DNA of 64,000 nt from Escherichia coli (GTDB lineage Bacteria; Pseudomonadota; Gammaproteobacteria; Enterobacterales; Enterobacteriaceae): NCBI RefSeq assembly GCF_003334405.1, contig NZ_QOWM01000002.1. One strand, given 5' to 3'. The notes under the pieces were generated by a model. It made no database searches. It saw nothing but the letters and a program-made list of their open reading frames with translations, and had not been told where the DNA came from. Position numbers and translations under genes: made by a program. This document shows, in pieces, positions 1-44,556 of this stretch (the first letter of the stretch is position 1; every line of letters begins with the position of its first letter).

Positions 1-1268
1 GCGAAGTAACAAATATTGACGCGATTTTCGATATTCTCCGGCTGGTTCAGTGCCAGTACGTTCAGCGGAGTGTTGCTCTTCAGCAACTCTTCAACGTTAT
101 TTTTCAGCAACGGACCGACCACAATACTCGCGCCATCCTGCTGAACCTGGCTTAAGATCTGGCTAAGTGGTTGTGATGAGGTATCGTAGATTTTCAGCTC
201 TGCGGATGGATTTGCGGGTGCGCTTACCGCTGCGGTGCTTGTCGCCGGGGCGCTTACAGGCACCGGCTGGGCTGCAGGCTGTTCACCGGTCAGATCGCTA
301 ACCGAGGCTTGTGCCGGGCTGGCAACGCCATCCACGGTTTGCGGCTGAGGTTGTTCAGCTACGTCTGCGGCAGGTGCGGCAGCTACCTGAGCTGCCACTG
401 GCTGAGTGCCGATATTTTTCGCCGCTTCAAAGCCTTGCTGAATAGTGCGACCAAATACCGCTGCCTGGCCATTCAGTGGCAACAGCAGGGCGATTTTGTT
501 GGTCGAGGCTGGTTTAAACGCTTTTACGTTAACCAACTGCGTTGGCAGCATTTTCGCGCCCGGATTGTTCGGATAACGTTTCTGCCAGTCGGCGATCCCG
601 GCTTTCATCATGTCGGGATCGTTACGGTTATCAAACCAGACGCGCTGCAGATCCAGCCAGCCTTGCAGAATATTTTCGTCGGCGTTGATCACCAGCGTAT
701 TCGCCTGTTCCTGAGTCATGGAGGAGAGCGCCTGCCAGGTGGCATCAATATTCTGCTGTTTTTCTTTCGCGCCAAGCAGCGGTTCCTGAGCAATTAACGC
801 GCGCAGTAAATCAATGGAAGGACGCCCCTGGCTGGCATCGATTTTTGCCTGCCAGTAACGCGCTTGCTGGTTTTGTTCTAAATCGGCAGGTGTGATTTTC
901 GCCAGCAAGTTTTGCGCGCCAGCAAAATCTTTCTGCGCCAGTTTAATCTCTACCGCCAGCAGTGTTTTCTCGCGACGCTGAGCATCGTTCAGTTCTTGCG
1001 GTAGTTGGTTAAACAACTCAACCGCCTGCCCGGTTTTACCTTCTTTCACCAGTGCACGAATGGCGAGTAATTGCCAGTTGATCCTGGTATCATCAGAGCT
1101 TTGCTGCATCTGCTGAAGATAAAAGGCAGAATCAGCCTGCGCCGTGCCCTGCATATAAGCAGTGGACTGATCGGGAGTATGGGTGCCACAACCGGCGAAA
1201 ATCAGGGCTGCCAGAACAACAGGCAGACAACGCGCGGCTTTCAAACGAGAAAATGTTGAGGGTACCAT
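1..1268 (-). CDS. lpoA: Outer-membrane lipoprotein activator of PBP1A, LpoA (N-terminal part; C-terminus lies beyond the window start)
   Basis: Minus-strand reading from ATG at 1268..1266 gives MVPSTFSRLKAARCLPVVLAALIFAGCG..., a lipoprotein signal/lipobox, continuing in frame to position 1. Divergent from rsmI as in E. coli. Confidence 0.9.
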   Translation of the reverse strand, partial: MVPSTFSRLKAARCLPVVLAALIFAGCGTHTPDQSTAYMQGTAQADSAFYLQQMQQSSDDTRINWQLLAIRALVKEGKTGQAVELFNQLPQELNDAQRREKTLLAVEIKLAQKDFAGAQNLLAKITPADLEQNQQARYWQAKIDASQGRPSIDLLRALIAQEPLLGAKEKQQNIDATWQALSSMTQEQANTLVINADENILQGWLDLQRVWFDNRNDPDMMKAGIADWQKRYPNNPGAKMLPTQLVNVKAFKPASTNKIALLLPLNGQAAVFGRTIQQGFEAAKNIGTQPVAAQVAAAPAADVAEQPQPQTVDGVASPAQASVSDLTGEQPAAQPVPVSAPATSTAAVSAPANPSAELKIYDTSSQPLSQILSQVQQDGASIVVGPLLKNNVEELLKSNTPLNVLALNQPENIENRVNICYF

Positions 1269-1332
1269 AATGTATCCAGTGATATTTTTTTTACGCAATG
1301 CTCAATATTAAATCGGCAATACGGACGACACA

Positions 1333-2193
1333 ATGAAACAACACCAATCGGCGGATAATTCTCAGGGCCAGCTTTACATTGTACCGACGCCAATCGGCAA
1401 TCTGGCGGATATCACCCAGCGTGCGTTAGAGGTATTACAGGCCGTTGATCTGATTGCCGCCGAGGATACTCGTCACACCGGTTTATTGCTGCAACATTTT
1501 GGGATTAATGCCCGGTTGTTTGCGCTGCACGACCATAACGAACAACAAAAAGCTGAAACGCTGCTGGCGAAGCTGCAAGAGGGGCAAAACATTGCGCTGG
1601 TTTCCGATGCCGGAACGCCGCTAATTAACGATCCTGGCTACCATCTGGTGCGTACCTGCCGTGAAGCGGGGATCCGCGTGGTGCCGCTACCCGGGCCGTG
1701 TGCTGCTATCACTGCGTTAAGCGCAGCGGGTTTACCCTCTGACCGTTTCTGTTACGAAGGCTTTTTACCTGCCAAATCAAAAGGCCGCCGTGATGCGCTA
1801 AAAGCCATTGAAGCGGAGCCGCGCACGCTGATTTTTTATGAATCTACCCACCGTCTGTTAGATAGCCTGGAAGATATCGTTGCGGTATTAGGCGAATCCC
1901 GCTACGTGGTTCTGGCGCGTGAGCTGACCAAAACCTGGGAAACCATTCACGGCGCGCCCGTTGGCGAGCTGCTGGCGTGGGTAAAGGAAGATGAAAACCG
2001 TCGCAAAGGCGAAATGGTGCTGATTGTCGAAGGTCATAAAGCACAGGAAGAAGACTTACCCGCCGATGCCCTGCGCACGCTGGCGCTGCTACAGGCAGAA
2101 CTGCCGCTGAAAAAAGCGGCGGCGCTGGCCGCAGAAATTCACGGCGTGAAGAAAAATGCGCTGTATAAGTATGCGCTGGAGCAGCAGGGGTAA
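1333..2193 (+). CDS. rsmI: 16S rRNA 2-prime-O-ribose C1402 methyltransferase RsmI
   Basis: 286-aa [38 protein letters not shown]..., tetrapyrrole-methylase-like fold; ATG start confirmed. Confidence 0.95.
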
Positions 2194-2203
2194 CAGTGCC
2201 GAA

Positions 2204-2237
2204 GCGTTGCGTTAATCAAAACGCAACGTCTTCTTTT
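2204..2237 (+). terminator. Intrinsic terminator after rsmI
   Basis: Inverted repeat cgttgcgtt / aacgcaacg followed by tcttctttt on the plus strand; overlaps the convergent yraK stop. Confidence 0.5.
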
Positions 2238-3327
2238 ACCGCACGATGACGGTAATGGTGGCTGTGCCCTGAAATTTTCCTGTTTCCAGCTCACCACCGA
2301 CCAGATTAACTGGCCAGGCGCGCATATTGACGGTGCCATGCCCGGAAGGATCAACGGGAAGGATACCGTTCTGAAAAGGAATATTTGCAACTCCGCCGCC
2401 GAGATTTTCAATACGAATACCGACATCGGGCACATTGTCTGAACTTCTTCGCCTGGCGACCAGGTTGTACTGGTCTACTACCCCAGTTGTACCGTCGATG
2501 CGCATTTGCAACGAGTTTTTAATCTTTGAAGTATCACCACAGTCATAAGTGATATCAAAGTCTACTGGAGTAAAACCGTCTGGCATGGCATTGCGGGTGG
2601 TAAACTTCTGACCATTGATGAATCCAAAATTAACCTTAATAACATCGCCCTGATTAATTTTGCACGACTGTGGGGCGGTGAGATTTCCCTGAATCGATAA
2701 CTTGACTAAATCATGGAAGTCACCTGTAGACGGGCTTCCCATTCCATCGACCCACGCGCCTTTAATGACGGCAATATCCGTTTTCGGAATGGTCATCGAG
2801 CCGAGAAATGGCTTGGTGACATACAGGGTAAAGGTGGTGTTCGCACCAATATTAACGGGTCCATAACGAGACGTATCACCCTGGCAAACACCCGTTTGGG
2901 TTGCAGCAGAATATACCGTGTTGTTTTTTATCTGTGTGAATCGGGTGTTAACAGAGACAACCTGGTCGGTTGTGAGTCCTGGAATGTCGTTTGCCTGTAA
3001 TGTGGTTTTAATATCCAGGCTGTCATTGAGTTTGTAATATCCTGTCTGATGTCCAGTGGTGGTAAGTACGGGGCTGACCATATAGACAAGTTTAACTGCC
3101 TTACCCGCAGAGCAGGAACAGGCGTATTGCCAGTTAGTGCTACTTAGCGTTGCAGAGGTAAACTCCCGTCCTGTCACGTTATCTGTCTGGTTCACCGTAA
3201 CATCATCAACCACACTGCTGTAATTTGTCGCACCGCTAGTGCTGTCGGCTCCACACCCTCCTGAGGAGGCATAAGCGCAGGATGTGGATATCAACAAAAG
3301 ACCTGTTATAAGAGGCGCTCTTTTCAT
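2236..3327 (-). CDS. yraK: Fimbrial adhesin-like protein (chaperone-usher pilus tip/minor subunit)
   Basis: Track ORF 2236..3585 trimmed to internal ATG at 3327, giving MKRAPLITGLLLISTSCAYA (signal peptide), 363 aa; last gene of the yraHIJK operon. Confidence 0.8.
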   Translation of the reverse strand: MKRAPLITGLLLISTSCAYASSGGCGADSTSGATNYSSVVDDVTVNQTDNVTGREFTSATLSSTNWQYACSCSAGKAVKLVYMVSPVLTTTGHQTGYYKLNDSLDIKTTLQANDIPGLTTDQVVSVNTRFTQIKNNTVYSAATQTGVCQGDTSRYGPVNIGANTTFTLYVTKPFLGSMTIPKTDIAVIKGAWVDGMGSPSTGDFHDLVKLSIQGNLTAPQSCKINQGDVIKVNFGFINGQKFTTRNAMPDGFTPVDFDITYDCGDTSKIKNSLQMRIDGTTGVVDQYNLVARRRSSDNVPDVGIRIENLGGGVANIPFQNGILPVDPSGHGTVNMRAWPVNLVGGELETGKFQGTATITVIVR

Positions 3328-3337
3328 TTTTTTATCC

Positions 3338-5854
3338 TTAATGGCACTGCGCTGTGCCTTGTAATACAGAGGTTGTAGGTTCTGAATCCGGTGTACTGAA
3401 AGCAAACTGACATTGTTGATCTGCCTGATTTCCCCAGCGTACAGTCCAGCTTTGTGATTTACTCGATATCCCAGAGAGATATAGTATGCCGCCCTCATCG
3501 ACGATACTTTGTTGCCCTGTATCATCGTTGCTGGCAAGAGCGCCAAAGGGCAACGGTTTACCGTTGCGATCGCTGACTGTAACAAGTACGCGATAACCGA
3601 TATTGGCGTTGAAACGCGCCGCTACCATTGCACCTCTGTTGGGCACCACAAACTGTGTTGTTTGTTCAAGATCGACGTTATCGGGCAGCTGCGTAGTATC
3701 TACCGAGAGACGGTTTTCCTGATAAGTTGTGAGATAAGGAACCACTGCATAGCCAAAAGGATCGGTAGCAATCCCCGGATAGTTTTGTATCCTCACGCCA
3801 GATGCTCCGTTAGCATCGATAAGCGCAAAAGCGTTGCCCAGATATTGCGAGAGCGTCACGCCATGAGGATGGATAACCACGCCGCCGGTAACGCCGTAAT
3901 TGTATTGGCTGCTGTCATTACCGTAGCTGTATCCGGCACTGAAGGTGCCATAAGGTGAACGGTAACTGGCGTTCAGGCTACTGTTATGGTTGTTATCGTC
4001 ATCCAGACTTTGTTCCAGGCTATAGCTCAGGCGACCATCATCCAGCAGTGAGCCATCAAGACGCATTTCATGTTGGGTTGGGCGATCTTTCTGGCTGGTC
4101 ATCTGATAGGAAACCCGGCTACGCGGTAACCAGCGTTCTAACGGAATACTGAGATTCAAAGAGAGTGCGCGGTCATTATTTTGATCAGTGTAGCGGCTGT
4201 ATTGATAATTCAGGCTGTAACCAACTCCCCATTGCTGGCCGGAAACCCCAACAGAGATATTCCTGTTTTTATCGTTATTGCCCCAATAGTCTTGCTGCGA
4301 ACCGGAGGCATACAGACTTACCCCATCAAATATTGTCTGGCTGATGTTGAATTGAATTTCACTTTTTTGGCGACTGTTATAGTCCCAATTGCGGGTATTG
4401 GCTTCATTAAAACTAAAATAGCCATCGTTGGTATAGCGATAGTAGCTGACAGCGATATTGGTGTTGGTTTCCGGGATATCTTTGATGTACTGCGTACGCC
4501 ATTGATAGCCATGAAAAGAGTGCTGGTTATCGAATTGGGTGTCAGCTCTGTTGATATCCATCGACAACGCGCCCAGTGCGCCAAGTGTGCCGCCGATACC
4601 GATCCCCAGCGCATAATAATCTTCAGAACCGAGCAGGCCGCCATACAGCGTAAAAGTATTATTCAAACCATATATTGCCGTGGCTTCAGCAAATTCGGGT
4701 TCCTTGCTATCACTGTTTGCATCAGCGCGATAGCGTCCAGCGGTCGCGCTATACTTTAGATGCCCAGGTCGCTGCATCATGGGTAATGAAGAATAAGGCT
4801 GGATAAAGCGACGTTGTGTACCGTCACTTTCTTCAATCGTGACTTCTAAATCGCCGCTGTTGGAAGAGGGGTAGAGATCGTTAATTTCAAAGGCACCCGC
4901 TGACACGTTGCTTTGATAGATCACATAACCATTTTGCCTGATAGTCACGATTGCACTACTGTTTGCGATACCGCGTACCGTTGGGGCAAATCCGCGCTGG
5001 CTGTTTGGCAACATATTATCGTCGGAAGCGAGTTGCACGCCAGTAAAGGTGTAGCTGGAAAAAATACTGCCGCTGGTGGCGCTTTCTCCCAGAAGCAACT
5101 GAGACTTCAACGCCTTGATATCACGTTGTAAATAACTACTGATGGTATTCCAGCTTGATGTCTGATCGTTGCGTGTCCATGTGGAATAGTTGCGTAATCG
5201 CCAGGGGCCAAAATTAGCACCATTTTGCATATTCAGGTACTGTCGTTGGCTACGATTGCCCTGGCGGTAACGGTTATCAGAACCTGTAAACGAGTAGTTG
5301 GTAAACAGCGTTGGTATACCATCGTCCCAACGAGAAGGGGAGACGTAACCTCTTGCATCACGGTACAGTGCAATTTGGGGAATGCTCAAATTAAGTTGCT
5401 GATGATTGAAATCAAATTCAGCAGCTGTACCGGGAATGATTTGTTCAAGCGAGTTGATCACGCTATCGTCATCTTTTTCAGCCAGCGCCGGGATTTCATC
5501 CACCTTAATACCCAGCTCACGTAGTTGTTCTACCGTAAACTGTGGCTGCAGAAGTTGCTCTGCATTGGCGGTAAATGTAATTTTTTTCTGTGAAACCTTC
5601 TTTTTATTCAGCCAGATATCAACCTGATAAGTTCCTGGTAGTTGTGCATATTTTTTTGAAAAACGCGACAGATCGGTTGTTTGCATACCACTTTTTGTGG
5701 TTTCCAGCATAATGGGGTCGAAATAATACTCTTCGGCGTTAGCGGTAGTGCAAAGCATGCCGCTGCCAGTGAGCACCATCGGCAAACAACGTTTGATGAT
5801 GAGCGCCAACTGTTTCGGTGTGCGTTTATGTCCCTGGTGGTGTCGTTGTGGCAT
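3338..5854 (-). CDS. yraJ: Fimbrial outer-membrane usher protein
   Basis: Track ORF trimmed to internal ATG at 5854 (MPQRHHQGHKRTPKQLALIIKRCLPMVLTGSGMLCTTANA...), about 838 aa, usher-sized, between chaperone and adhesin genes. Start choice is an inference. Confidence 0.85.
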   Translation of the reverse strand: MPQRHHQGHKRTPKQLALIIKRCLPMVLTGSGMLCTTANAEEYYFDPIMLETTKSGMQTTDLSRFSKKYAQLPGTYQVDIWLNKKKVSQKKITFTANAEQLLQPQFTVEQLRELGIKVDEIPALAEKDDDSVINSLEQIIPGTAAEFDFNHQQLNLSIPQIALYRDARGYVSPSRWDDGIPTLFTNYSFTGSDNRYRQGNRSQRQYLNMQNGANFGPWRLRNYSTWTRNDQTSSWNTISSYLQRDIKALKSQLLLGESATSGSIFSSYTFTGVQLASDDNMLPNSQRGFAPTVRGIANSSAIVTIRQNGYVIYQSNVSAGAFEINDLYPSSNSGDLEVTIEESDGTQRRFIQPYSSLPMMQRPGHLKYSATAGRYRADANSDSKEPEFAEATAIYGLNNTFTLYGGLLGSEDYYALGIGIGGTLGALGALSMDINRADTQFDNQHSFHGYQWRTQYIKDIPETNTNIAVSYYRYTNDGYFSFNEANTRNWDYNSRQKSEIQFNISQTIFDGVSLYASGSQQDYWGNNDKNRNISVGVSGQQWGVGYSLNYQYSRYTDQNNDRALSLNLSIPLERWLPRSRVSYQMTSQKDRPTQHEMRLDGSLLDDGRLSYSLEQSLDDDNNHNSSLNASYRSPYGTFSAGYSYGNDSSQYNYGVTGGVVIHPHGVTLSQYLGNAFALIDANGASGVRIQNYPGIATDPFGYAVVPYLTTYQENRLSVDTTQLPDNVDLEQTTQFVVPNRGAMVAARFNANIGYRVLVTVSDRNGKPLPFGALASNDDTGQQSIVDEGGILYLSGISSKSQSWTVRWGNQADQQCQFAFSTPDSEPTTSVLQGTAQCH

Positions 5855-5882
5855 TCCCTGATGACCTGTGTTTTTATATTTT

Positions 5883-6578
5883 TTATTGCAGTGGACGAGT
5901 TTCTGTCCCGGAACTGCCGCCATAATCATTGATCGCAGCCCATTTCACGTTCTTTCCGCCAGATGCAGGAAGTGGTAACTGTTTATGTTCTCCGGGCGCG
6001 ATATATTCAATTTTGCTTGTGAGATCGGTTTTATCGACTGCCAGTCCGGCAAATACGACGTAATATTCAGTTGGGTTATATATATTGAGTGAATGGTCAC
6101 TACGTTTAAATTCCAGTGATTTCCACGCATCGTTTACCCGTCCCTTCAGGTGTGCGGGGCGATAAAACATTTTGATCCGTGTTTTAAATACCAGCGTCAA
6201 CTCGTTAGCATTAACATCATCTGATTTTTTCTTTGCTGGAATGGCACGAACATTAATGTAGAACAGCGACTCTTTATTTTCAGGCAGGTTATCAGCTGTT
6301 TTAATAATTCGCAGTGATGAGTCATCGCCAGCCTCAAGACGAAATAGCGGTGGGGTTATAATAAATGGGGCACGGCTTTTACCATCTATATTATCTACCC
6401 ATGATTGCAGTAAATAAGGCGTTTCTGCGCCTTTGTTTGCGACAGGTAACGCAGCCTCTTTGCGGCTGGCATCATAGATCACTCGCGTTCGCTGTAAAAC
6501 GATTCCTCCTGCAAGCGCCTGGCCAATACAGAAGCTACACAACAAGGTTAATATCACCGCGAATGTTCGTTTTGACAT
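5883..6578 (-). CDS. yraI: Periplasmic fimbrial chaperone (PapD-like)
   Basis: 231-aa [39 protein letters not shown]..., signal peptide plus chaperone-like N-terminus; ATG start confirmed. Confidence 0.85.
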
Positions 6579-6657
6579 AGTTATTTTTCAACCTGATACA
6601 ACGAGAAAGAGGAAGGAAAAGGGCGTTATCTGACAGGTCAGATAACGCCCTAACGTA

Positions 6658-7242
6658 TTAACGGTAATCCAGCGTTACGTTAACGATAGCGTCTGCTTCC
6701 CCTGGGGTGATTTCTGATGGAACTACGGTTGATACGTAGTAAGCGATGAGGTCAACATTGACAATACCATTGGATTCCGCCGGGATCTGATAAACCGTGT
6801 TATCATTGCCCATAGCATTCAGTGGCATAATGTTTCCGCTTTCCGCATCGTCAATACGGATACCCACACCTGTTGCCGCTATGCCAGCAAAAGAGCCTAC
6901 TTTTGCCAGATTAGGGAAGTTAGGGACGGTGCCATTATCTCGCGTTTCCAGCCATAGACGGAAAGACGCTTCAACGTTGCCGTTATCGTGCTCCCACCCA
7001 GTCATTGGGCAGTTAACTAAAGGAATAGTGAATGGAATTTTTGGGCTACGCTCGCCAATATTACGAAACTGTTCGGCATTATAGTGACCAAGAGCAACTT
7101 CAATTTTCTTATCAGAGTCATTGATTTCACAAGCGGATTTTAAAATCTCGCCATCAAAAACTATTTCACCATCGGTTGCAGCGGCATTACCTGCGAAAAG
7201 CGCAAGTAAGCCCGCAATAGCTGTTTTTGTAACTTTATTCAT
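6658..7242 (-). CDS. yraH: Fimbrial major subunit-like protein
   Basis: 194-aa ORF MNKVTKTAIAGLLALFAGNAAATDGEIVFDGEI...; first gene of the operon, preceded by a roughly 400-bp AT-rich region. Confidence 0.85.
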   Translation of the reverse strand: MNKVTKTAIAGLLALFAGNAAATDGEIVFDGEILKSACEINDSDKKIEVALGHYNAEQFRNIGERSPKIPFTIPLVNCPMTGWEHDNGNVEASFRLWLETRDNGTVPNFPNLAKVGSFAGIAATGVGIRIDDAESGNIMPLNAMGNDNTVYQIPAESNGIVNVDLIAYYVSTVVPSEITPGEADAIVNVTLDYR

Positions 7243-7642
7243 ATATAACCTTATCCTTGTAACAAGTACATAATCATATTTAATGTGAATATATGTTCAA
7301 CATCTTTAAAGATTATACAGGCAGAAATATTTCATTGAACATTAAATAGACTGAACTTTAAGATTATATTTATATGCAAATATTTGATATTTTCATTATA
7401 TTGATATCAATTTTCTATGTATTCAAAAGAGTATAAATGCCTGACTTTGCTGCGCCAGGGGGCGAGTCAGAATACGAGGTGATTTATTAATAGAACAAGT
7501 TATATGTATATCTAAAATTAAATTGTTGAACATAACTCCTTTTGCTATCGGCGTTATGTTCAACCCAGTCAAATGTTATTTAATATAATGCGTGACTGTT
7601 ACATAAGTTAATTTAAACATTTTGAGCAAATTTTTCATCTGG

Positions 7643-8398
7643 TTAGGTGTTAATTAAACAAATAAAGTTACTGTGCAGCCATAAAAATGAAGCCGGGATA
7701 GCGGTAGAGACTTTAGCCGTGAGAAAACGATCTGTCGCATCCTGCTTTCCTTCGCCAGTCACCAGTAACAAAACTTCGCGGGCATTGAGAATATCCTTCA
7801 GGCCTAAGGTGATCCCACGAGTCACGGGGCGACCCGCGGTTTTTAACATCTCATGTTGCTGTGTTCTGGCATCAAGTTGACTGATATGGCAGGCCGGTTG
7901 CAGGCTTTCTCCCGGTTCGTTCAGCCCAAGATGACCGTTTTTCCCCAATCCGAGAACGCATAAATCCAGACCGCCTTTGCGCGCAATCAGGTTCGTTACC
8001 CGTTCGCACTCTGTCTCATTTATCTCTTCGGAGCGAAAGCTGATGAGCTGGTCTTCACGTAGCCCCAGCGGCTGCACGATATGCTGTTGCAGGAAAGTTT
8101 CGCAGGTGCCTGGCATCGTTAATGGCAGATCCACCCATTCGTCGAGCTTCACGAAGGTGAGCTGGCTGACATCAACCTGCTGCTGGTGGATTTTTTCTAC
8201 CAGATAATGATACGTCAGTAATGGCGTGGCTCCGGTCGCCAGGCAAATCACGGCATTCGGTTTGCTACGGATCACGGCCAATAAATATTCGCTGGCACGT
8301 TCACTTAACGCCGTATAGTTTTCAACTTGCTGAAGGGTTTGCACAGGATGAAATTCCTTAAGTAAAGAGGCACCACCAGACGCAGTGCCTCGTTCCAT
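7643..8398 (-). CDS. agaI: Galactosamine-6-phosphate deaminase/isomerase (NagB family)
   Basis: 251-aa ORF with NagB-like motifs (…ICLATGATP…, …GLGKNGHLGLNEPG…); last gene of the aga locus. Confidence 0.85.
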   Translation of the reverse strand: MERGTASGGASLLKEFHPVQTLQQVENYTALSERASEYLLAVIRSKPNAVICLATGATPLLTYHYLVEKIHQQQVDVSQLTFVKLDEWVDLPLTMPGTCETFLQQHIVQPLGLREDQLISFRSEEINETECERVTNLIARKGGLDLCVLGLGKNGHLGLNEPGESLQPACHISQLDARTQQHEMLKTAGRPVTRGITLGLKDILNAREVLLLVTGEGKQDATDRFLTAKVSTAIPASFLWLHSNFICLINT

Positions 8399-9190
8399 TT
8401 ACAAAATGCCGAATGCGGAACAAACAATAGAGAGCATAAAAGTCACGCCGATTAACAGCACCGGATGCGCTTTTTTCACCCGCAGGAAGTAATACATCAG
8501 CAGGGTGTAGGCCATCGGTAAAATGTTCGGGAAGACTTTATCGAAGAAATCCTGCTGCAGCGCAACGCTGTGGGTATTGTCGATGGCAAACGATGTCACC
8601 ACGTTAATATGCACATACGAAGCGATCAGCCCGCCGATTACCGTGATCCCGAGGATGGTTGCCGAACGGGCAATCATCTGCGAGTTCTCTCGCACTTTAT
8701 CGATCGCCTTCACGCCGACTGAATAACCGACGTGGGTCCAGCCGACGCGCAGGAAAAAGATAAGCAGGTAAACGGCGAAAAATAGAATCGGCCCCAGCAG
8801 GTTTCCCTGGCTGGCAAATGATGAGCAAATTCCCGCCATAATCGGCAACAAAGTAAACCAGAAAATCGCATCGCCAATCCCGGCGATTGGGCCAAACAGT
8901 GCCACTTTGAGGCCTTTAATGGTGTCGCGGTTTTCTCCTTTTTCTTCCATCGAAATTAATAACCCCATCAGGAATCCGACCAGATTCGGGTGGGTATTAA
9001 TAAATTCGAGGTTATCTTTCATCGCCGCGCTTAAGCCCGGTTTGTCGTCCTTATAAATCTTTTTCAGGATCGGCAACATCGCCCAGGTAAAACCGCCCGC
9101 CTGCATCCTTTCGTAGTTAAAGCTCGCTTGCAGCAGCGACGAACGAAAGCCCAGACGGGTGATATCTTTTTTACTGATTTCAGATCCCAT
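8399..9190 (-). CDS. agaD: PTS galactosamine-specific EIID component
   Basis: Track ORF trimmed to internal ATG at 9190 (MGSEISKKDITRLGFRSSLLQASFNYERMQAGGF...), 263 aa, mannose-family IID signature; overlaps agaC end by 11 nt. Confidence 0.85.
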   Translation of the reverse strand: MGSEISKKDITRLGFRSSLLQASFNYERMQAGGFTWAMLPILKKIYKDDKPGLSAAMKDNLEFINTHPNLVGFLMGLLISMEEKGENRDTIKGLKVALFGPIAGIGDAIFWFTLLPIMAGICSSFASQGNLLGPILFFAVYLLIFFLRVGWTHVGYSVGVKAIDKVRENSQMIARSATILGITVIGGLIASYVHINVVTSFAIDNTHSVALQQDFFDKVFPNILPMAYTLLMYYFLRVKKAHPVLLIGVTFMLSIVCSAFGIL

Positions 9191-9983
9191 TGCTGTAGTC
9201 CTCTTCTTCATTTTTACTGGCAACGGGCTGCGGTTGCGCTTGCTGCCGGGATTTCGCATTGAAAAACTCATACACCGCAAAGCCTGCGCCCAGTACGGCA
9301 ACCGGCAACAGGTTGCTGACCTGGATGTAGCAAACAAACAGGAAACCGGCGATCAGGTAAGGGATATATTGCGCTTTGAACATTACGCGCAGCAGCAAGC
9401 CAAAACCAACGGCAGGCAGAATACCGCCAGCCACTTCAAAGCCGTGGGTCAGCCAGGCGGGCATCGCTTTCACCAGCGCCTGCATCGCCCCCTGTGCCAG
9501 GTAAGTACAGAGGAAAGCAATCACCGCATACGCTGAAGCGACGATGAGCATCGTTGTCCAGTTAAGCCGGGAAAACGCTGCCGTATCCGCCTCTTTCGCG
9601 CATTTATCGGCTTTGGTCATAAATAATGAGAAAGCGGAATAGAAGAACAGAATGACGTACTGCATTAACAAACTAAACGGCAGGCCAAGACCAATTGCTG
9701 TTTTGGCATCAACGCCCGTAGACCATGCAATGACGGTGGTCATCAGACCCGCCATAATCGGGTTGGGCGGCTGAACACCACCTGCAGGGGTTAATCCGGC
9801 GAAAGCCAACTCTGTCAGACCACCGGTAATTAAGCCAGTCTGAATATCACCGAGAATAGCGCCAGTTAGGGTACAAACGATTATCGGGCGGAATAAAAAT
9901 AAGGCTTCCAGCCAAAAATCAATCCCCAGAACAAAAACTAACGCCGCCAGGGATAATCCCTGAAGTAGGGTTATTTCATGCAT
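9180..9983 (-). CDS. agaC: PTS galactosamine-specific EIIC component
   Basis: 267-aa hydrophobic ORF MHEITLLQGLSLAALVFVLGIDFWLEALF..., mannose-family IIC; ATG confirmed. Confidence 0.85.
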   Translation of the reverse strand: MHEITLLQGLSLAALVFVLGIDFWLEALFLFRPIIVCTLTGAILGDIQTGLITGGLTELAFAGLTPAGGVQPPNPIMAGLMTTVIAWSTGVDAKTAIGLGLPFSLLMQYVILFFYSAFSLFMTKADKCAKEADTAAFSRLNWTTMLIVASAYAVIAFLCTYLAQGAMQALVKAMPAWLTHGFEVAGGILPAVGFGLLLRVMFKAQYIPYLIAGFLFVCYIQVSNLLPVAVLGAGFAVYEFFNAKSRQQAQPQPVASKNEEEDYSNGI

Positions 9984-10021
9984 TTTTATTACCTCAAACC
10001 AATATTAAGGCGATTTTAGAT

Positions 10022-10498
10022 TTAGTCAGGGATTTGTTCTTTTTGATCGCCAGGGACGTCCTGAATGAAAACATTCACGCCACGTTGTTTAATAAAACGT
10101 AAGTCCGTGAGATCCTGGTCATCGACATAAACTTTACTGCTGATTTGCTTTTTCCCTTCCGAGAAATGCATATTGCCGACGTTGACATCTTTCAGGTCAA
10201 TACCACCTTCTACCAATTTACGTACCGTTTGTGGCGTACGGCAAATCAGGAAGATCTTCTGATGTGGTGCAGCTTTGCCGATGACGTTAATGGTTTTTTC
10301 GATAGTAAAGAAACGAATGCCAAAGCCGTAGGTTTCCGCGGTAATACCCATTAATTTCTGTTGAATATCATCGTTAGCGACAACATCATCCACGACTACC
10401 AGCAGATTTGCACCGATGGTGGATGTCCAGGTCACGCCAACCTGACCGTGAACCAGACGGTTATCAATACGGGTTAAGAGAATATTTGGACTGGTCAT
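10022..10498 (-). CDS. agaB: PTS galactosamine-specific EIIB component
   Basis: 158-aa ORF MTSPNILLTRIDNRLVHGQVGVTWTSTIGANLLVVVDD..., mannose-family IIB with the phosphorylatable His motif. Confidence 0.85.
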   Translation of the reverse strand: MTSPNILLTRIDNRLVHGQVGVTWTSTIGANLLVVVDDVVANDDIQQKLMGITAETYGFGIRFFTIEKTINVIGKAAPHQKIFLICRTPQTVRKLVEGGIDLKDVNVGNMHFSEGKKQISSKVYVDDQDLTDLRFIKQRGVNVFIQDVPGDQKEQIPD

Positions 10499-10664
10499 TG
10501 TGTAATCCTCACCATAAAGTTGAATAATATAATTTTTTTAAATATATTATTGTTGCGATATTGTAGTGATGTATTTATTAAGGTTTAGTTATCTCCTTTT
10601 CCATTAAGGCACTCCCCGATATTAATCGGGAAGTACATTGGGATAAATCATAAAAAACTAATGA

Positions 10665-11537
<873 letters not shown>

Positions 11538-12692
11538 TTATGCCTGCCACGGATGAATGATTACGCCTTGCACCACGCGGTTAACGGTGCCACTGGCTGA
11601 TGGGGTATCCGGCGTATTGCCCATGTGCAGCGACTGCATCAGTGCAAACGTCTGGGCGTACATCAGGAAGCAAAATGCCTGCTCAACGTCGATAAAGTGA
11701 CGTGACGGTGGCAGGATGATATGTGGACCGGCAGCGACGATGTCGCTGCTTTCCGCGGCGATGGCGATTACACGCATTGCCTGGTTGTCACGGCGAAGTT
11801 CAGCCAGCAGATCAAGATCATACTGACGGGTGTAAGGGTGGCTGGAGACAAATACCACCACCAGCGTTTCGTCATCGACCAGCGATTTTGGTCCATGACG
11901 GAATCCGGTTGGAGAATCATAAAAGGCCGCCAGTTTACCCGCCGTCAGTTCCAGCACTTTCAGCGCCGACTCGCGTGCTGCGCCCTGTAAGCCACCGCTA
12001 CCGAGATAAACGATCCGTTTCCACGGTGCGTAACCAAACACACCTTCGCTGAAATCGCCCAGTGAGGTCAGGATCGCCTGGCAACGATCCGCCACGTCGC
12101 GGAAGGTTTGGCTGTTGATCGTCTCAGGTGCGAAAACCGCGAGGCAGCTGGCCATCATGGTGGTAATGCTGCTGGTCATCGCAAAGCCGCGATCGTGCGT
12201 TTCTGCGGGCATCAGCAGGGCAAACGCGTTATCGCTGTTGATCGCGTTTTGGTAAAGAGCGCCCGCTTCGTTGCAGGTGATCGGCAGGTGATAGCATTCC
12301 GGTACAAATTGATTTGCCAGTTCCACGGCTGCGACGCTTTCCGGGCTGTTGCCGGATCGACCGAAGGAGATCAACAGCAGCGGATGAGCTGGGTTCAGGT
12401 AGTCCATCGGATTGGTGACCAGATCGGTGGTCGGTACGGCGCTGAAGTTTTTACCGGTATGGCTGGCGAGCCACGGCGCGATGATGTCACCGATAAATGC
12501 CGACGTTCCGGCTCCGGTCAGGATGATCCGCAGATTCTCTTTGCGCAGTAACGGTTCAAGGAAGTTATTGAGCGCGGAACGTAGCGCGTCGATGTTGGTG
12601 AGTGAACGGATCCATGCGCGAGGCTGATGGCGGATCTCTTCTTCAGTCCATGTACCGGTTGCGGCGGCAGCAGGGGTGTAATTTTCTGGCAT
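11538..12692 (-). CDS. agaS: SIS-domain sugar-phosphate isomerase/deaminase AgaS
   Basis: 384-aa ORF with tandem SIS-domain features (…LTGAGTSAFIGD…); ATG confirmed. Confidence 0.9.
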   Translation of the reverse strand: MPENYTPAAAATGTWTEEEIRHQPRAWIRSLTNIDALRSALNNFLEPLLRKENLRIILTGAGTSAFIGDIIAPWLASHTGKNFSAVPTTDLVTNPMDYLNPAHPLLLISFGRSGNSPESVAAVELANQFVPECYHLPITCNEAGALYQNAINSDNAFALLMPAETHDRGFAMTSSITTMMASCLAVFAPETINSQTFRDVADRCQAILTSLGDFSEGVFGYAPWKRIVYLGSGGLQGAARESALKVLELTAGKLAAFYDSPTGFRHGPKSLVDDETLVVVFVSSHPYTRQYDLDLLAELRRDNQAMRVIAIAAESSDIVAAGPHIILPPSRHFIDVEQAFCFLMYAQTFALMQSLHMGNTPDTPSASGTVNRVVQGVIIHPWQA

Positions 12693-13042: not shown

Positions 13043-14176
13043 TCAAAACGAAGCTAATTGACCCTGAATCCAGATTTGTTGCACATGTAGCCCGCTATCC
13101 AGCGCAACGACGCTGGCGCGTTTGCCCGGTTTAAGCGATCCCAGAACACCATCAACACCCAGCATTCGCGCCGGATGCAGCGACGCCATATGGATGGCTT
13201 CCGCAGGCGTTACGCCCGTCAACTCGACCATATTGCGCACTGCCGCATCAACAGACAGCGTACTGCCCGCCAGCCCACCAGACGCGGTACGGACAACGCC
13301 ACCGTGCATCTGCACTTCTTCACCACATAACGTATAGCGACCATCCGGCATCCCAGCTGCCTGCATCGCGTCGGTGATCAGTACGATTCTCTCTTTCGCA
13401 CAGCAACAACACAGCGACATTGCCGCCGGATGCACATGATGACCATCGGCTATCAGTTCCAGCCAGGCGCGCTTGTCCGTTAATCCCGCGCCAACCATTC
13501 CCGGTTCGCGGTGATGTAAACCTGTCATCCCGTTATAGCAATGCACCAGGCCGTCGGCACCAGCATCAAATGCGGCGCGGGTTTGTTGCCAGGTCGCCGC
13601 GCTATGCCCCAGCATCACCCTTACGTTTTGCTGTTTAAGATGGCGGATGGCCTGCAATGCCCCTTCTTTTTCCGGTGCCAGCGCTACCACACGTAAGGTG
13701 TGCTGAGAAACGGCAATCAACTGATCCAGCTCGGCAATTTCAAGCTCGCGAAACAACTCCGGCGGATGCGCGCCTTTATTCTGCGGCGTGAAGTACGGTC
13801 CTTCGAGATAACTCCCCAGCACTTGCGCACCAGGTCCGCCGCGTTGGCAACGTTGAGCAATACGTTTCAGCGCCGCATGAATGGTATTAAGCGGCGTGGT
13901 TACGGTGGTCGGTAACCAACTGCCGACACCTTCGCGTGCCTTGTGCATTGCCAGCTTGTCGAGTACATCCGGCGCGTCATCCATTACATCAACGCCCGCA
14001 CCACCGTGTACATGGGTGTCGATGTAAGCAGGGCAGAGCAGTTCCGCATCGCGTTCAGTCACGCCCGCTGGAATCGGTTCGATTGCTGCGATGACACCGT
14101 CAGCAATACGCAACTGATGGTCATCGAGCCATCCCTCTTCAGTCAGCAGCCTTCTGGCGCGCAGAACGTGTGTCAT
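13043..14176 (-). CDS. agaA: N-acetylgalactosamine-6-phosphate deacetylase, full length
   Basis: Track ORF trimmed to ATG at 14176 (MTHVLRARRLLTEEGWLDDHQL...), NagA-like amidohydrolase motifs (…YIDTHVHGGAG…). Its ATG overlaps the agaF stop as ATGA. Confidence 0.85.
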   Translation of the reverse strand: MTHVLRARRLLTEEGWLDDHQLRIADGVIAAIEPIPAGVTERDAELLCPAYIDTHVHGGAGVDVMDDAPDVLDKLAMHKAREGVGSWLPTTVTTPLNTIHAALKRIAQRCQRGGPGAQVLGSYLEGPYFTPQNKGAHPPELFRELEIAELDQLIAVSQHTLRVVALAPEKEGALQAIRHLKQQNVRVMLGHSAATWQQTRAAFDAGADGLVHCYNGMTGLHHREPGMVGAGLTDKRAWLELIADGHHVHPAAMSLCCCCAKERIVLITDAMQAAGMPDGRYTLCGEEVQMHGGVVRTASGGLAGSTLSVDAAVRNMVELTGVTPAEAIHMASLHPARMLGVDGVLGSLKPGKRASVVALDSGLHVQQIWIQGQLASF

Positions 14177-14607
14177 ATTCCTTCCTCGACCGGACATTCT
14201 TCATGGCAGCGGCCTAACTCGTCCACCAGACTGGTCAGCCCTCGGTGTCCACACTCCAGCGCCTGTACACGGAATTCTTCACCGCTTAACCCTTCGCGCT
14301 CCAGCACCATCTCCAGTAGCAGTTGCAAATTGGTGCCGGTGATCACTTCACAGCCCGGTTTTTGCATCGCCAGCGTTGAAGCTACGCGAAACGGCGTGCC
14401 GCCCAGCAAATCCGTCAGAAAAACAATGCCGTCTTCACAATCCAGTTGGGCGATGGCCTCTTCAAGCTGCGATGTAAGCAGCGCGGTGCTTGAGGTTTCC
14501 GGAAAATCGATGGCGATAAACTGCGATTGCTCACCGAGAATTTGCTTCATTGCTTTTTCCATGCCGCTGGCAAACCCGCCATGCCCTGTCAAAATAATAC
14601 TTAACAT
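14173..14607 (-). CDS. agaF: PTS N-acetylgalactosamine-specific EIIA component
   Basis: 144-aa ORF MLSIILTGHGGFASGMEKAMKQILGEQ..., mannose-family IIA. Confidence 0.85.
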   Translation of the reverse strand: MLSIILTGHGGFASGMEKAMKQILGEQSQFIAIDFPETSSTALLTSQLEEAIAQLDCEDGIVFLTDLLGGTPFRVASTLAMQKPGCEVITGTNLQLLLEMVLEREGLSGEEFRVQALECGHRGLTSLVDELGRCHEECPVEEGI

Positions 14608-14624
14608 CTAATACCTCATTGTAT

Positions 14625-15503
14625 TTAAAGGAAATGGCAGAATTTACCGACGATGCCGAGAACCACGGTAACTGCAATCAGACGCAGCGGACTCCAGCCG
14701 CGGCGTACCAACCAAAACATGGTCAGGGTGTAGACCAACGGTAAGAAGGCCGGCATCAGTTTGTCGATAACATCAGCCTGTAACTTAACCACTGCGTCGC
14801 CCGCCGTGATTTCCAGCGTGGTGCTTAAACGAACATAGGTTGCCACCAGCGCACCGATTACCGTCATCCCAACGATAGACGCAGCATGGCCGACTTTTTT
14901 GGTATTCGCTTTAATCAGTGGAATCGCCGCCACGCCCATGCGGTAAGCATAATGCGCCAGACCAAAACGCAGCCCCAGGTGTACCACGTTGAACAGCACA
15001 ATAAAGACGACTGCGCCAAGAATGGAGCCTTGCAATGCCAGACTGGCTCCAATCCCGCCACAAATCGGCAGTAGCGTTAGCCAGAACATTGCATCGCCAA
15101 TCCCGCCAAGCGGCGCACCGACGGCAATTTTGGTGCTCTGAATACTGTTAACGTCCTGCTTAGAACGCTCCATCGCAAGGATAATGCCGATAACAAACGT
15201 CACCAGAAACGGATGGGTATTGAAGAAACCCATATGCCCCTTCATGGCGCGCGCCAGGTCGCGTTTATTAGTGTGGATCTTTTTCAGAGCAGGCAGCAGA
15301 CCGTACAACCAGCCAGAAGCCTGCATACGTTCGTAGTTAAAAGACGCTTGTAACAGCATGGAACGCCAGGCGACGCGGTTGATATCTTTTTTCGTCAGCT
15401 CCGCGCCAATGCTCTGATCTTCATACACGTTTTCATTGACGCCAGTCAGCAATGTTTCTTCGTTTTCACTGACGTTCGGCAGGGTGGTTTGATTAGATGC
15501 CAT
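14625..15503 (-). CDS. agaE: PTS N-acetylgalactosamine-specific EIID component
   Basis: Track ORF begins at a TTG; trimmed to first ATG at 15503 (MASNQTTLPNVSENEETLLTG...), 292 aa; paralogous to AgaD. Confidence 0.85.
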   Translation of the reverse strand: MASNQTTLPNVSENEETLLTGVNENVYEDQSIGAELTKKDINRVAWRSMLLQASFNYERMQASGWLYGLLPALKKIHTNKRDLARAMKGHMGFFNTHPFLVTFVIGIILAMERSKQDVNSIQSTKIAVGAPLGGIGDAMFWLTLLPICGGIGASLALQGSILGAVVFIVLFNVVHLGLRFGLAHYAYRMGVAAIPLIKANTKKVGHAASIVGMTVIGALVATYVRLSTTLEITAGDAVVKLQADVIDKLMPAFLPLVYTLTMFWLVRRGWSPLRLIAVTVVLGIVGKFCHFL

Positions 15504-16272
15504 CTTCAAATTCCTCTTTCTGTGCCGCAGGTTGAGTCGGTTCAGGAGATTTACGCAGCAAGTCGATCAGCGCCATCGCCAGCGCAGCGGCAGCAATAGC
15601 CAGCACTGGTAACTTGAGCCAGGCGGCGGCAACAAAGCCCAGGATGAAGTAGGGGATGTAGACGTTTTTCATCATGATTTTCAGCAGCACGGCAAAACCG
15701 ATTGCTGGCATGATGCCGCCCGCGACGCCGAGGCCGTCGATTAATCGTTGCGGCAGGACATCAATGATGGTTTTTGCATGTTCCGCGCCGAAGTAGATAG
15801 GCAGGAAAGCGCAGAGAAAATAGAAAATGCCGAGTGCCAGCAGTGCCAGATAGTTCACGCGTTCAATGCCGCGAGTATCGGCGTTCTCCGCCATCCGGTC
15901 GCAGCGAGACATCACGCCGGACATCACCGAGAACAGGAAGGTAATCCCCATCTGTACTGCGACAGCGAAAGGTACGGCGACACCTACTGCGACATCGGGT
16001 TTCACGCCAGTAGTAATGGCAAACGCCGTGCCGACGATAGTACCGATAATCACGTTAGGCGGCTGTGCGCCCGCCAGCGGGGCCAGCCCCATCCACACCA
16101 GTTCCAGCGTACCGCCGGTTAAAATTCCGGTATGCAGATCGCCAAGTACCAGCCCGACCAACGGGCCGAGGACCACCGGGCGGTGCATATGGGTTAGGCC
16201 GTTAAACATATCCAGGCCAGCGATAAAGGCGATAATGCCCAACGCAAATGCCTGCAACAGGCTGATTTCCAT
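15493..16272 (-). CDS. agaW: PTS N-acetylgalactosamine-specific EIIC component, full length
   Basis: 259-aa hydrophobic ORF MEISLLQAFALGIIAFIAGLDMFNGL...; paralogous to AgaC. Confidence 0.85.
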   Translation of the reverse strand: MEISLLQAFALGIIAFIAGLDMFNGLTHMHRPVVLGPLVGLVLGDLHTGILTGGTLELVWMGLAPLAGAQPPNVIIGTIVGTAFAITTGVKPDVAVGVAVPFAVAVQMGITFLFSVMSGVMSRCDRMAENADTRGIERVNYLALLALGIFYFLCAFLPIYFGAEHAKTIIDVLPQRLIDGLGVAGGIMPAIGFAVLLKIMMKNVYIPYFILGFVAAAWLKLPVLAIAAAALAMALIDLLRKSPEPTQPAAQKEEFEDGI

Positions 16273-43592: not shown

Positions 43593-43949
43593 TTAATTTG
43601 AACCAAACTTCGGATCGTTTCCGTAACGATTGCTGCCAGAAGTACCTTCTGTGCAGAAAAAAACCAGAAGCACGAGCCAGCCAATAAACGGAACAAAAAA
43701 GAGCAAGGCCCAGGCACCTGAACGGTCGGTATCGTGTAAGCGACGGATAGCAAGCGCAAGGACGGGAAGGAAGGTTGCCAGCAAATAAAGCATAGACAGA
43801 TATGGAAGCTCCAGACCTAAAATCAATTGAATGACATTGATAATAGCGCCGACGATGGCGTTAATCAGAGTAAACATCCAGTACTCTTTACGACGTGCGC
43901 GACCAGAGAAACCAACATAATTTTTTAATACGGACAAATACCACTGCAT
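43593..43949 (-). CDS. yhaI: DUF805 inner-membrane protein
   Basis: 118-aa ORF MQWYLSVLKNYVGFSGRARRKEYWMFTLINAIVGAIINV...; paralogue of YhaH. Confidence 0.8.
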   Translation of the reverse strand: MQWYLSVLKNYVGFSGRARRKEYWMFTLINAIVGAIINVIQLILGLELPYLSMLYLLATFLPVLALAIRRLHDTDRSGAWALLFFVPFIGWLVLLVFFCTEGTSGSNRYGNDPKFGSN

Positions 43950-44190
43950 AAAAACATCCCTTTAATTAAAAGTGACGAAAGTCTATTCCGGGTATTGTGT
44001 AAATGCTATTCGTATCTTTCTTTTTCGGATGTTATAAAGGTTTTGATATTTAAGATAAATACATGGTTATTTTTTATAGGTAATTTATATAACGACATTG
44101 AAATATTTTAAATAAACATTAGTAAATTATTCATTCATCAACATAATGATAAAAGCCGGATGAGTCAGACATCCGGCGAGCAGATTTGTT

Positions 44191-44556
44191 TTAAGGTTCC
44201 AGTTTTGGATCTGGTCCAAAGCGGTTTTCGCCTGGCGTACCCGCCTGGCAGTTAAAGACGATGATAATAAGCCAGCCGATAAACGGGATTAAGAATAGCA
44301 GTGCCCACCACGCCGAGCGGTCGGTGTCGTGCAGGCGGCGGAACTGAACCGCCCACCACGGTAAAAACACCAGAATACCGTAGATTGTCGTCAGGATGCC
44401 TTCGCCACCAGCGCGTTGCCAGCCTAACATTTTATCCAGCAGCCCCAGCACGAACGTAAAGATGATGTTGACCAGAATAAACATCCAGTACTCTTTGCGC
44501 CGCGCACGACCCCGGAAACCGACATAATTTTTTAGTACTTTCAGATACCAGTCCAT
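44191..44556 (-). CDS. yhaH: DUF805 inner-membrane protein
   Basis: Track ORF trimmed to ATG at 44556 (MDWYLKVLKNYVGFRGRARRKEYWMFILVNIIF...), 121 aa. Confidence 0.8.
   Translation of the reverse strand: MDWYLKVLKNYVGFRGRARRKEYWMFILVNIIFTFVLGLLDKMLGWQRAGGEGILTTIYGILVFLPWWAVQFRRLHDTDRSAWWALLFLIPFIGWLIIIVFNCQAGTPGENRFGPDPKLEP

Follow-up and report, generated by a model that had tools for sequence, protein, structure and literature searches.

The closest described system to the locus studied here is the yraHIJK operon of Escherichia coli K-12, which encodes the Yra fimbriae and has been placed in clade gamma1 (PMC3032704) or gamma* (PMC5717340) of the chaperone-usher (CU) fimbriae. The lpfABCD(E) operon, also gamma1, has the same gene order of major subunit, chaperone, usher and two-domain adhesin, but yra lies at a different chromosomal site and has no LpfE-type fifth minor subunit. 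Type 1 fimbriae (fimAICDFGH) share with yra a clearly homologous chaperone and usher, the pilin fold family and the principle of a two-domain adhesin, yet yra lacks the FimF/FimG adaptor genes, a FimI gene, the fimB/fimE recombinases and the fimS invertible promoter. Going by the published description, the closest usher relative of YraJ belongs to the UshC-type gamma* fimbriae of EPEC and ST131; LpfD-like or CupB6-like adhesins are found in this clade, and no E. coli lineage is reported to have both UshC and YraJ (PMC5717340). The agaI/yraH spacer upstream of the operon appears in the same published table as the promoter islands of the cryptic fimbrial operons sfmA, elfA, yadN, yehD and fimA (PMC3661553), which are likewise AT-rich, 300–450 bp long, occupied by H-NS and linked to horizontally acquired genes. 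It differs from these islands in that it must also carry the aga terminator, because its upstream gene lies on the same strand.

The window, a 64-kb stretch of E. coli DNA, contains this already described operon in intact form, and the feature is an ordinary and well-catalogued one. All four minus-strand open reading frames are uninterrupted, and their predicted roles fit the Pfam and PDB matches, so the complete set of major subunit, chaperone, usher and adhesin-like subunit proposed by the first-pass annotation is indeed present (Table 1). The gene names it used are also right, since the proteins show no amino-acid difference from MG1655 b3142–b3145 and occupy the same agaI/rsmI locus. The 400-bp spacer is identical too, and the only difference within the operon is a single synonymous base at position 3518 in yraJ. 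As had been noted, agaI (7643–8398, same strand) is the upstream neighbour of yraH, while rsmI (1333–2193) lies downstream of yraK and is convergent with it. Many E. coli chromosomes are 100% identical to the window over positions 2000–8500. The window around the operon is 2,192 bp longer than its MG1655 counterpart, with agaW, agaE, agaF and agaA intact. For yraK and yraJ we used the starts annotated in identical E. coli records and in MG1655, as those of the longest open reading frames (a TTG at 3585 for yraK; 5929 for yraJ) overshoot.

Table 1. Features of the yra locus and its flanks in the window.
Feature	Coordinates	Strand	Basis
yraH, major fimbrial subunit, 194 aa	6658..7242	-	Intact ORF; annotated in identical records and as MG1655 b3142
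yraI, periplasmic PapD/FimC-type chaperone, 231 aa	5883..6578	-	Pfam, PDB
yraJ, outer-membrane usher, 838 aa	3338..5854	-	Pfam, PDB
yraK, two-domain tip-adhesin-like subunit, 363 aa	2236..3327	-	Pfam, PDB
AT-rich agaI-yraH spacer, yra regulatory region	7243..7642	-	Composition; published H-NS-bound promoter island
Conserved promoter-proximal core of the spacer	7243..7345	-	Identity to E. whittamii; promoter-like match
TTGATA-17-TCAAAT, best-match sigma-70 promoter predicted for yraH by Shimada et al.	7382..7410	-	Sequence from PMC3946193 mapped here
Hairpin with 14-bp stem, then U/C-rich tract, directly 3' of the yraH stop	6620..6651	-	Terminator-like match; folding
Hairpin about 80 nt past the agaI stop, then U-rich run (probable aga terminator)	7525..7564	-	Inverted repeat I1 with 15-nt arms
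Hairpin between convergent rsmI and yraK, shared terminator region	2204..2229		Plus-strand terminator-like match with T-run
Lineage-restricted yra segment, about 5.48 kb, 45% G+C	2190..7672		Flank homology with IAI39 and F11

YraH matches the Pfam Fimbrial family (PF00419) over residues 27–193 (E=9e-28), and its PDB matches are FimI, FimA and FimF (6e-9 for FimI/FimA). Its mature N-terminus, TDGEIVFDGEILKSAC, combines an alternating hydrophobic pattern with a Cys residue, which we take to resemble the N-terminal donor strand of FimA-type pilins. YraI contains both Ig-like domains of a periplasmic chaperone, PapD_N (E=5e-41) and PapD_C (E=1e-11), and matches FimC in the PDB with E=1e-43. In the alignment with FimC the arginine of TRVIY and the lysine of RIK-x-YRP are retained; this pair corresponds to the conserved subunit-anchoring Arg8/Lys112 of the family. 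YraJ has PapC_N, Usher (full length, model positions 1–549 of 549, E=7e-216) and PapC_C domains, and is matched along its length by FimD (E=3e-174) and PapC (E=1e-88).

In YraK the Pfam Fimbrial match (PF00419) is confined to residues 211–362, and the N-terminal region has no Pfam match. Residues 45–360 could nevertheless be aligned to the tip adhesin LpfD (PDB 5AFO, E=1e-11), and the N-terminal domain has a weak match to FimH (E=6e-10). A two-domain chaperone, a three-part usher, a PF00419 pilin and a two-domain adhesin, as predicted from these matches, are the components of a classical CU operon. It is reasonable to propose YraK as the specificity determinant.

The best NCBIfam matches of YraI, YraJ and YraK are LpfB, LpfC and LpfD, respectively. 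Their scores are 195, 740 and 76 bits against equivalog cut-offs of 360, 1271 and 412 bits, and none of the four Yra proteins reaches an NCBIfam equivalog cut-off. No match at equivalog level is to be expected, because there is no Yra-specific model among the matches, and NCBIfam provides no name more precise than "Lpf/Fim-like". With all four proteins under the Lpf cut-offs, the system is classified by its sequences as Lpf-like and not as Lpf proper. We conclude that the locus is very probably yraHIJK as a classical FimC/PapD-type CU cluster of the gamma clade, Lpf/Fim-like, silenced by H-NS and restricted to certain lineages.

The spacer between yraH and agaI had been described as about 400 bp of very AT-rich DNA. 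It is exactly 400 bp long and has a G+C content of 27.25%, compared with 50.0% for the window. Only 65 of the approximately 63,600 overlapping 400-bp frames in the window are equally low or lower in G+C, with a minimum of 26.25% for the frame starting at 7224, and frames as AT-rich as the spacer occur at just one other place, around 27.5 kb. The AT-richness is thus far beyond chance. A search against Rfam gave no match in positions 1–12000 of the window, spacer included, at E≤0.1.

That such a spacer would be of the H-NS-bound, silencing type, as the first-pass annotation supposed, agrees with published K-12 data. The agaI/yraH spacer is a described "promoter island" that is bound by H-NS in the ChIP data sets of both Kahramanoglou and Oshima (PMC3661553), and Genomic SELEX has located an H-NS site and a site for sigma-70 (RpoD) holoenzyme in it (PMC3946193). 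Wurpel et al., citing Korea et al. (2010), describe the CU operons of commensal E. coli strains as cryptic and under H-NS repression (PMC3559732). With its AT-rich regulatory region and its patchy distribution (see below), the locus has two of the properties expected of an H-NS-silenced xenogeneic locus. The operon is not completely silent everywhere, since there are reports of yra transcription by A/B1 urinary isolates in vivo, by HUS-associated STEC and under overproduction of BolA. Forced expression in K-12 led to adhesion, according to citations of Korea 2010 (PMC3559732, PMC12711010), and for yra PMC12711010 names bladder cells as the target.

Many fimbrial operons are phase-variable, as is known for the family, and a perfect 11-nt inverted repeat (7229–7239 and 7661–7671) brackets the spacer. 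A phase-variable switch within the spacer could therefore be the main control on expression, in place of H-NS alone; it would be an invertible element as in fimS or a Dam/Lrp methylation switch as in pap. However, the arms of the repeat lie within the yraH and agaI coding sequences, and inverted repeats of at least 11 nt were found in 11% of composition-matched shuffles, i.e., at chance level. The junction predicted for the inverted orientation was present in none of 3366 genomes, and no recombinase gene adjoins the operon, which speaks strongly against an invertible promoter of the fimS type. A pap-type switch needs two GATC sites and is highly improbable as well, as there are none in 7243–7642. 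Control mainly by phase variation is thus largely refuted, and we give it next to no weight compared with silencing by H-NS.

The spacer is unevenly conserved. Its promoter-proximal core is 84.5% identical to the corresponding E. whittamii sequence, rising to 90% over 7263–7322, whereas the distal 263 nt show 50% identity. Among six diverse E. coli loci no SNPs were seen at 7244–7321. The core holds a perfect TATAAT (7317–7312) and a candidate TTGAAC-16-TATGAT promoter (7300–7273), and conservation is at its maximum at these promoter-like hexamers, 30–75 nt upstream of yraH. When folded, the core shows no unusual RNA structure compared with shuffles (z=+0.4). The sigma-70 promoter predicted from the SELEX study lies further upstream; E. 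whittamii does not share it, and within E. coli it has SNPs at 7386, 7389 and 7408. Its use is therefore doubtful, and we set it aside as the yraH promoter.

The core could also be the operator of a specific regulator or anti-silencer that lifts H-NS repression in response to a host or environmental signal. Two observations suggest this: the core is 85–90% conserved with E. whittamii while the remaining spacer is unalignable and identity in yraH is no more than 80%, and the window has three copies of ATGTTCAAC, each of them within the spacer. We consider this reading possible but rather unlikely.

The hairpin in the spacer 3' of agaI (−18.9 kcal/mol, z=−4.9) is not clearly conserved in E. whittamii. 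From its strong stem and U-rich tail it is probably the terminator of the aga operon. As agaI precedes yraH on the minus strand at a distance of 400 bp, and as this hairpin is AT-rich and could be leaky, yraH might lack a promoter of its own and depend on read-through from the aga operon, the spacer then being only a terminator and an untranslated region. Such an arrangement fits poorly with the binding of RNA polymerase holoenzyme to the spacer in vitro (PMC3946193), with its cataloguing as a promoter island (PMC3661553), with the strength of the hairpin and with the peak of conservation at the promoter-like hexamers. It seems highly improbable, and we favour transcription of yra from within the spacer.

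Two further hairpins were identified within and beyond the operon. The one directly after yraH folds with −26.2 kcal/mol (z=−5.2), and none of 200 shuffles was equally stable. In E. whittamii an equivalent 11-bp hairpin with a U-tract is found at the same place after yraH (z=−3.2). We infer that this element acts as a partial terminator or an mRNA-stabilising structure, which would set the ratio of subunit to assembly machinery. The hairpin between rsmI and yraK has a minus-strand fold of −18.4 kcal/mol (z=−4.4).

The yra genes are part of a lineage-restricted segment. Flank homology with IAI39 and F11, which have empty sites, stops at around 2189 and 7673, and E. coli without yra has some 100 bp of unrelated DNA in place of the segment. 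In the sampled genomes that lack the region, agaI adjoins rsmI. At least 80% of the region was found in 3262 of 5426 complete E. coli genomes, while most or all of it is absent from ∼40%. The gain of yra has been assigned to the E/B1/A lineage (PMC6896753). Among species-representative genomes scanned with YraK, a search that detects close relatives only, the matches were E. whittamii and a 379-bp contaminant contig in an Alkalicoccobacillus assembly. With E. whittamii as the sole true match, the scan therefore points to no donor lineage.

Absence from so many genomes is what would be expected of a decaying relic, i.e., a horizontally acquired cluster that is no longer useful and whose AT-rich leader is left-over foreign DNA. 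Inactivating mutations fit this picture as well. They include independent nonsense mutations in yraJ (codon 490 in L005 and codon 138 in L010), a 358-bp deletion with a frameshift in yraK of F690, whose yraH differs from that of the window about as much as the O157:H7 yraH does, and insertions of IS2, IS1203 and IS1 in other strains. In addition, yraK is truncated in ∼10% of yraK-positive genomes, and Shigella flexneri carries several yra genes as pseudogenes. The window and most carriers, however, have all four open reading frames intact. The operon is syntenic in E. whittamii, and dN/dS between the two species is 0.07–0.12 for all four genes at a dS of 0.67–0.88, and therefore every yra gene has been under long-term purifying selection. 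The conservation of the promoter-proximal 100 nt and of the intercistronic hairpin, together with the reported adhesion on forced expression and transcription in vivo, also argues against decay, and we regard the relic explanation as improbable. The yra operon is kept by purifying selection where it is present, yet it has repeatedly been lost or inactivated in individual strains.

YraK had been singled out as the least conserved-looking component. This holds for the comparison with known family profiles, to which YraK is the least similar per residue, but not across E. coli strains, where YraH is the most variable. Of six sampled strains, five differ from the window by 11–13 amino-acid changes over the 194 residues of YraH and the sixth by 2 (dN/dS 0.27–0.59), against 2–8 changes in the 363 residues of YraK (dN/dS 0.08–0.15). 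Towards E. whittamii the two proteins are tied, with 83.0% identity for YraH and 83.5% for YraK. Within YraK the N-terminal domain is 82% identical to that of E. whittamii and the pilin domain 90%.

By analogy with other CU systems, the four Yra proteins would be exported by the Sec pathway. In the periplasm, YraI would then fold and cap the subunits through donor-strand complementation, and YraJ would provide both the pore in the outer membrane and the platform for assembly. As tip adhesin, the two-domain YraK would start the fibre, and YraH would polymerise beneath it by donor-strand exchange. Transcription would start in the 400-bp spacer, most probably within the conserved 100 nt adjoining yraH, and the hairpin after yraH would probably give more message for the major subunit than for the chaperone, usher and adhesin. 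With H-NS on the spacer, as seen in the published K-12 data, the operon would be all but silent under laboratory conditions.

The literature already covered the operon and its clade, cryptic state and patchy distribution, as well as the occupancy of its leader by H-NS, and the value of the locus as a discovery is small. New here are the limits of the segment and its absence from ∼40% of genomes, the synteny and selection seen with E. whittamii, the conserved 100 nt and the hairpin, the variability of YraH and the inactivating mutations. In practice the analysis provides a clean annotation of the yraHIJK locus, together with some pointers. To wake the operon, a promoter or operator should be sought in 7243–7345 rather than at the SELEX-predicted hexamers, and a stoichiometry-setting hairpin may be expected 3' of yraH. 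YraH should be treated as the antigenically variable component of the fimbriae, and the N-terminal domain of YraK (approximately residues 21–205) is the candidate receptor-binding module.

The minus strand of the window carries four successive intact open reading frames between 2236 and 7242, and these are essentially certain to be yraHIJK. We used the gene starts annotated in E. coli K-12 MG1655 (b3142-b3145) and in E. coli chromosomes that are 100% identical, since the mechanical longest-ORF starts lie too early for yraK (TTG, 3585) and yraJ (5929). Operon and spacer together differ from MG1655 at a single, synonymous position (3518 in yraJ). The four-gene operon with an AT-rich upstream region described in the first-pass annotation is thus confirmed, both by the intact reading frames and by the 400-bp spacer; the observation is real and correctly interpreted, and the operon is already known.

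Features of the yra locus in the window, with protein identity and dN/dS relative to E. whittamii
Feature	Position	Strand	Remarks	Identity (%)	dN/dS
rsmI	1333-2193		downstream neighbour, converges on yraK
Hairpin			between rsmI and yraK; terminator/inverted-repeat scan and folding
yraK	2236-3327	-	363 aa	83.5 (whole)	0.114
YraK N-terminal domain				82	0.132
YraK pilin domain				90	0.062
yraJ	3338-5854	-	838 aa	88.8	0.072
yraI	5883-6578	-	231 aa	90.0	0.083
Post-yraH hairpin	6651-6620	-	14-bp stem, U/C-rich tail, after yraH stop; -26.2 kcal/mol, z = -5.2
yraH	6658-7242	-	194 aa	83.0	0.116
ATGTTCAAC, copy in core	7293-7301	+
ATGTTCAAC, hairpin arm	7525-7533	-
ATGTTCAAC, hairpin arm	7556-7564	+
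Post-agaI hairpin	7564-7525	-	about 80 nt beyond agaI; z = -4.9
agaI	7643-8398	-	upstream neighbour, same strand as yra

The window also includes 2,192 bp that are absent from MG1655 (13043-16272; overall between 9109 and 28860). Like strain ML35, it has intact agaW, agaE, agaF and agaA (nagA-like) genes. Its strain of origin therefore has a complete GalNAc/GalN (aga) cluster and is not K-12 MG1655, yet its yraHIJK is almost identical to that of K-12.

The proposed roles of major subunit, chaperone, usher and adhesin-like subunit were borne out by Pfam and PDB matches. YraH has the Pfam Fimbrial domain and FimI and FimA as top PDB matches (6e-9 to 3e-8). YraI contains PapD_N and PapD_C, matches FimC (1e-43) and keeps the Arg and Lys of the subunit-binding cleft in the FimC alignment, and YraJ contains PapC_N, full-length Usher and PapC_C and matches FimD (3e-174) and PapC (1e-88). 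The Fimbrial domain of YraK is confined to residues 211-362, and residues 45-360 match the two-domain adhesin LpfD (PDB 5AFO; 1e-11). LpfB, LpfC and LpfD ranked first in NCBIfam for three of the four proteins. As all scored well below the equivalog cut-offs, we class the system as Lpf/Fim-like, of the gamma clade, and not as Lpf itself, in agreement with the published placement as gamma1 (PMC3032704) or as "gamma*" beside UshC (PMC5717340).

At least 80% of the yra region is present in 3262 of 5426 complete E. coli genomes. In sampled genomes without yra (e.g., IAI39 and F11) agaI adjoins rsmI, and flank homology with these strains stops at about 2189 and 7673, which delimits a segment of 5.48 kb with 45% G+C; the empty sites hold about 100 bp of unrelated sequence instead. 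The final codons of both agaI and rsmI come from the segment (about 2189-2193 and 7643-7673), so that AgaI has 251 aa rather than the 255 of the empty-site strains, and RsmI 286 rather than 287. Such a lineage-restricted segment fits the published assignment of yra gain to the E/B1/A lineage (PMC6896753). The sole close relative among species-representative genomes is E. whittamii, which has the same order agaD-agaI-spacer-yraHIJK-rsmI. Its AgaI tail is of the same kind (...NFICLI...), which suggests one ancestral junction.

At 7243-7642, the spacer spans exactly 400 bp and has 27.25% G+C, compared to 50.0% for the window; the minimum over all 400-bp frames of the 64 kb, 26.25%, belongs to the one beginning at 7224. 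The agaI/yraH region is among the E. coli "promoter islands" of Panyukov and Ozoline, whose scoring gives it H-NS occupancy in the data sets of Kahramanoglou and Oshima and a link to horizontally acquired genes (PMC3661553). Shimada et al. located a site for the RpoD holoenzyme and another for H-NS in the spacer and proposed the yraH promoter TTGATA-17-TCAAAT (PMC3946193), which maps to 7410-7382. The H-NS binding anticipated for this region thus matches published data, from both the island list and SELEX, and it is highly probable that this is the yraHIJK chaperone-usher operon and that its AT-rich leader is bound by H-NS. Silencing of yra by H-NS would have its basis in published K-12 data; commensal chaperone-usher operons of this kind are cryptic and H-NS-repressed in the summary of Korea et al. 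(2010) given by Wurpel et al. Some expression of yra has been reported in vivo in A/B1 urinary isolates, in HUS-associated STEC and upon BolA over-production. Further strongly AT-rich stretches of the window lie at 27138-28843 (K-12 yhaB/yhaC), 29100-29865 (tdcA-tdcR spacer with tdcR) and 43735-44304, the first two also being in the H-NS-bound island list (PMC3661553).

The post-agaI hairpin is a plausible aga terminator. Read-through from agaI is an unlikely source of yraH transcripts, given that this hairpin resembles a terminator and that RNA polymerase is reported to bind within the spacer. The post-yraH hairpin has an E. whittamii counterpart at the same place and, on the model of analogous hairpins in other fimbrial operons, probably raises the major-subunit message relative to that of chaperone, usher and adhesin.

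The distal 263 nt of the spacer share about 50% identity with E. whittamii and are effectively unalignable, whereas the proximal 103 nt (7243-7345) show 84.5% identity, reaching 90% across 7263-7322; across six diverse E. coli loci, 7244-7321 is free of SNPs. The hexamers predicted from SELEX have SNPs within E. coli and are not conserved. The core contains a perfect TATAAT (7317-7312) and a TTGAAC-16-TATGAT candidate. Since RNA folding of the core showed no unusual structure, the constraint probably acts on DNA, as promoter or operator. ATGTTCAAC occurs three times in the window (64 kb), each time within the spacer: two copies are the arms of the hairpin after agaI, and the third, in the conserved promoter-proximal core, has one mismatch in E. 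whittamii. The motif may serve as a binding site for a protein or have arisen as a side effect of high AT content.

Both a fimS-like and a pap-like switch were rejected. A perfect 11-nt inverted repeat flanks the spacer, with arms at 7229-7239 (yraH codons 2-5) and 7661-7671 (inside agaI, at the right-hand end of the yra segment). Repeats of at least 11 nt arose in 11% of shuffles, i.e., at chance level, the predicted inversion junction was found in 0 of 3366 genomes and no recombinase gene adjoins the operon, which argues against fimS-like inversion. The spacer contains no GATC, as a pap-like Dam switch would need, and an Rfam search of window positions 1-12000 (E ≤ 0.1) matched no known RNA family.

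The adhesin-like YraK had been singled out as the least conserved-looking component. This holds against family profiles, where its per-residue score is lowest, but not within E. coli, where the major subunit YraH varies most. Identity to the window reaches 99% or more for just 39% of yraH matches, compared to 63% of yraK matches; the bottom values of the sampled ranking are about 95.2% for yraH and about 97.1% for yraK. Among six diverse strains, YraH has 11-13 changes per 194 residues in five and 2 in the sixth (dN/dS 0.27-0.59), and YraK, intact in five of them, has 2-8 per 363 (0.08-0.15). Variation in yraK has been flagged as a predictor of O157:H7 clinical outcome (PMC12711010).

The yra copy of the window is intact; natural isolates carry independent inactivating mutations of yra genes. 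Premature yraJ stops differ between two sampled genomes (codons 490 and 138), and strain F690 has a 358-bp deletion with frameshift in yraK and an agaI stop at codon 72, its yraH being about as divergent from the window as that of O157:H7. Other strains have IS2, IS1203 or IS1 insertions, Shigella flexneri carries several of the yra genes as pseudogenes, and about 10% of yraK-positive genomes carry less than 80% of yraK.

A 379-bp contig of about 1x coverage (NZ_VLXZ01000075.1) in an Alkalicoccobacillus porphyridii assembly encodes YraK residues 1-125 with 100% identity and is almost certainly E. coli contamination. Relative to E. whittamii (1111-8995, aligned with window 1333-9190), dS is higher for the yra genes (0.67-0.88) than for agaD, agaI and rsmI on either side (0.33-0.55), which could reflect weak codon bias of rarely expressed genes or an older or separate history of the segment. 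At this dS, the low dN/dS values indicate purifying selection on all four yra genes.
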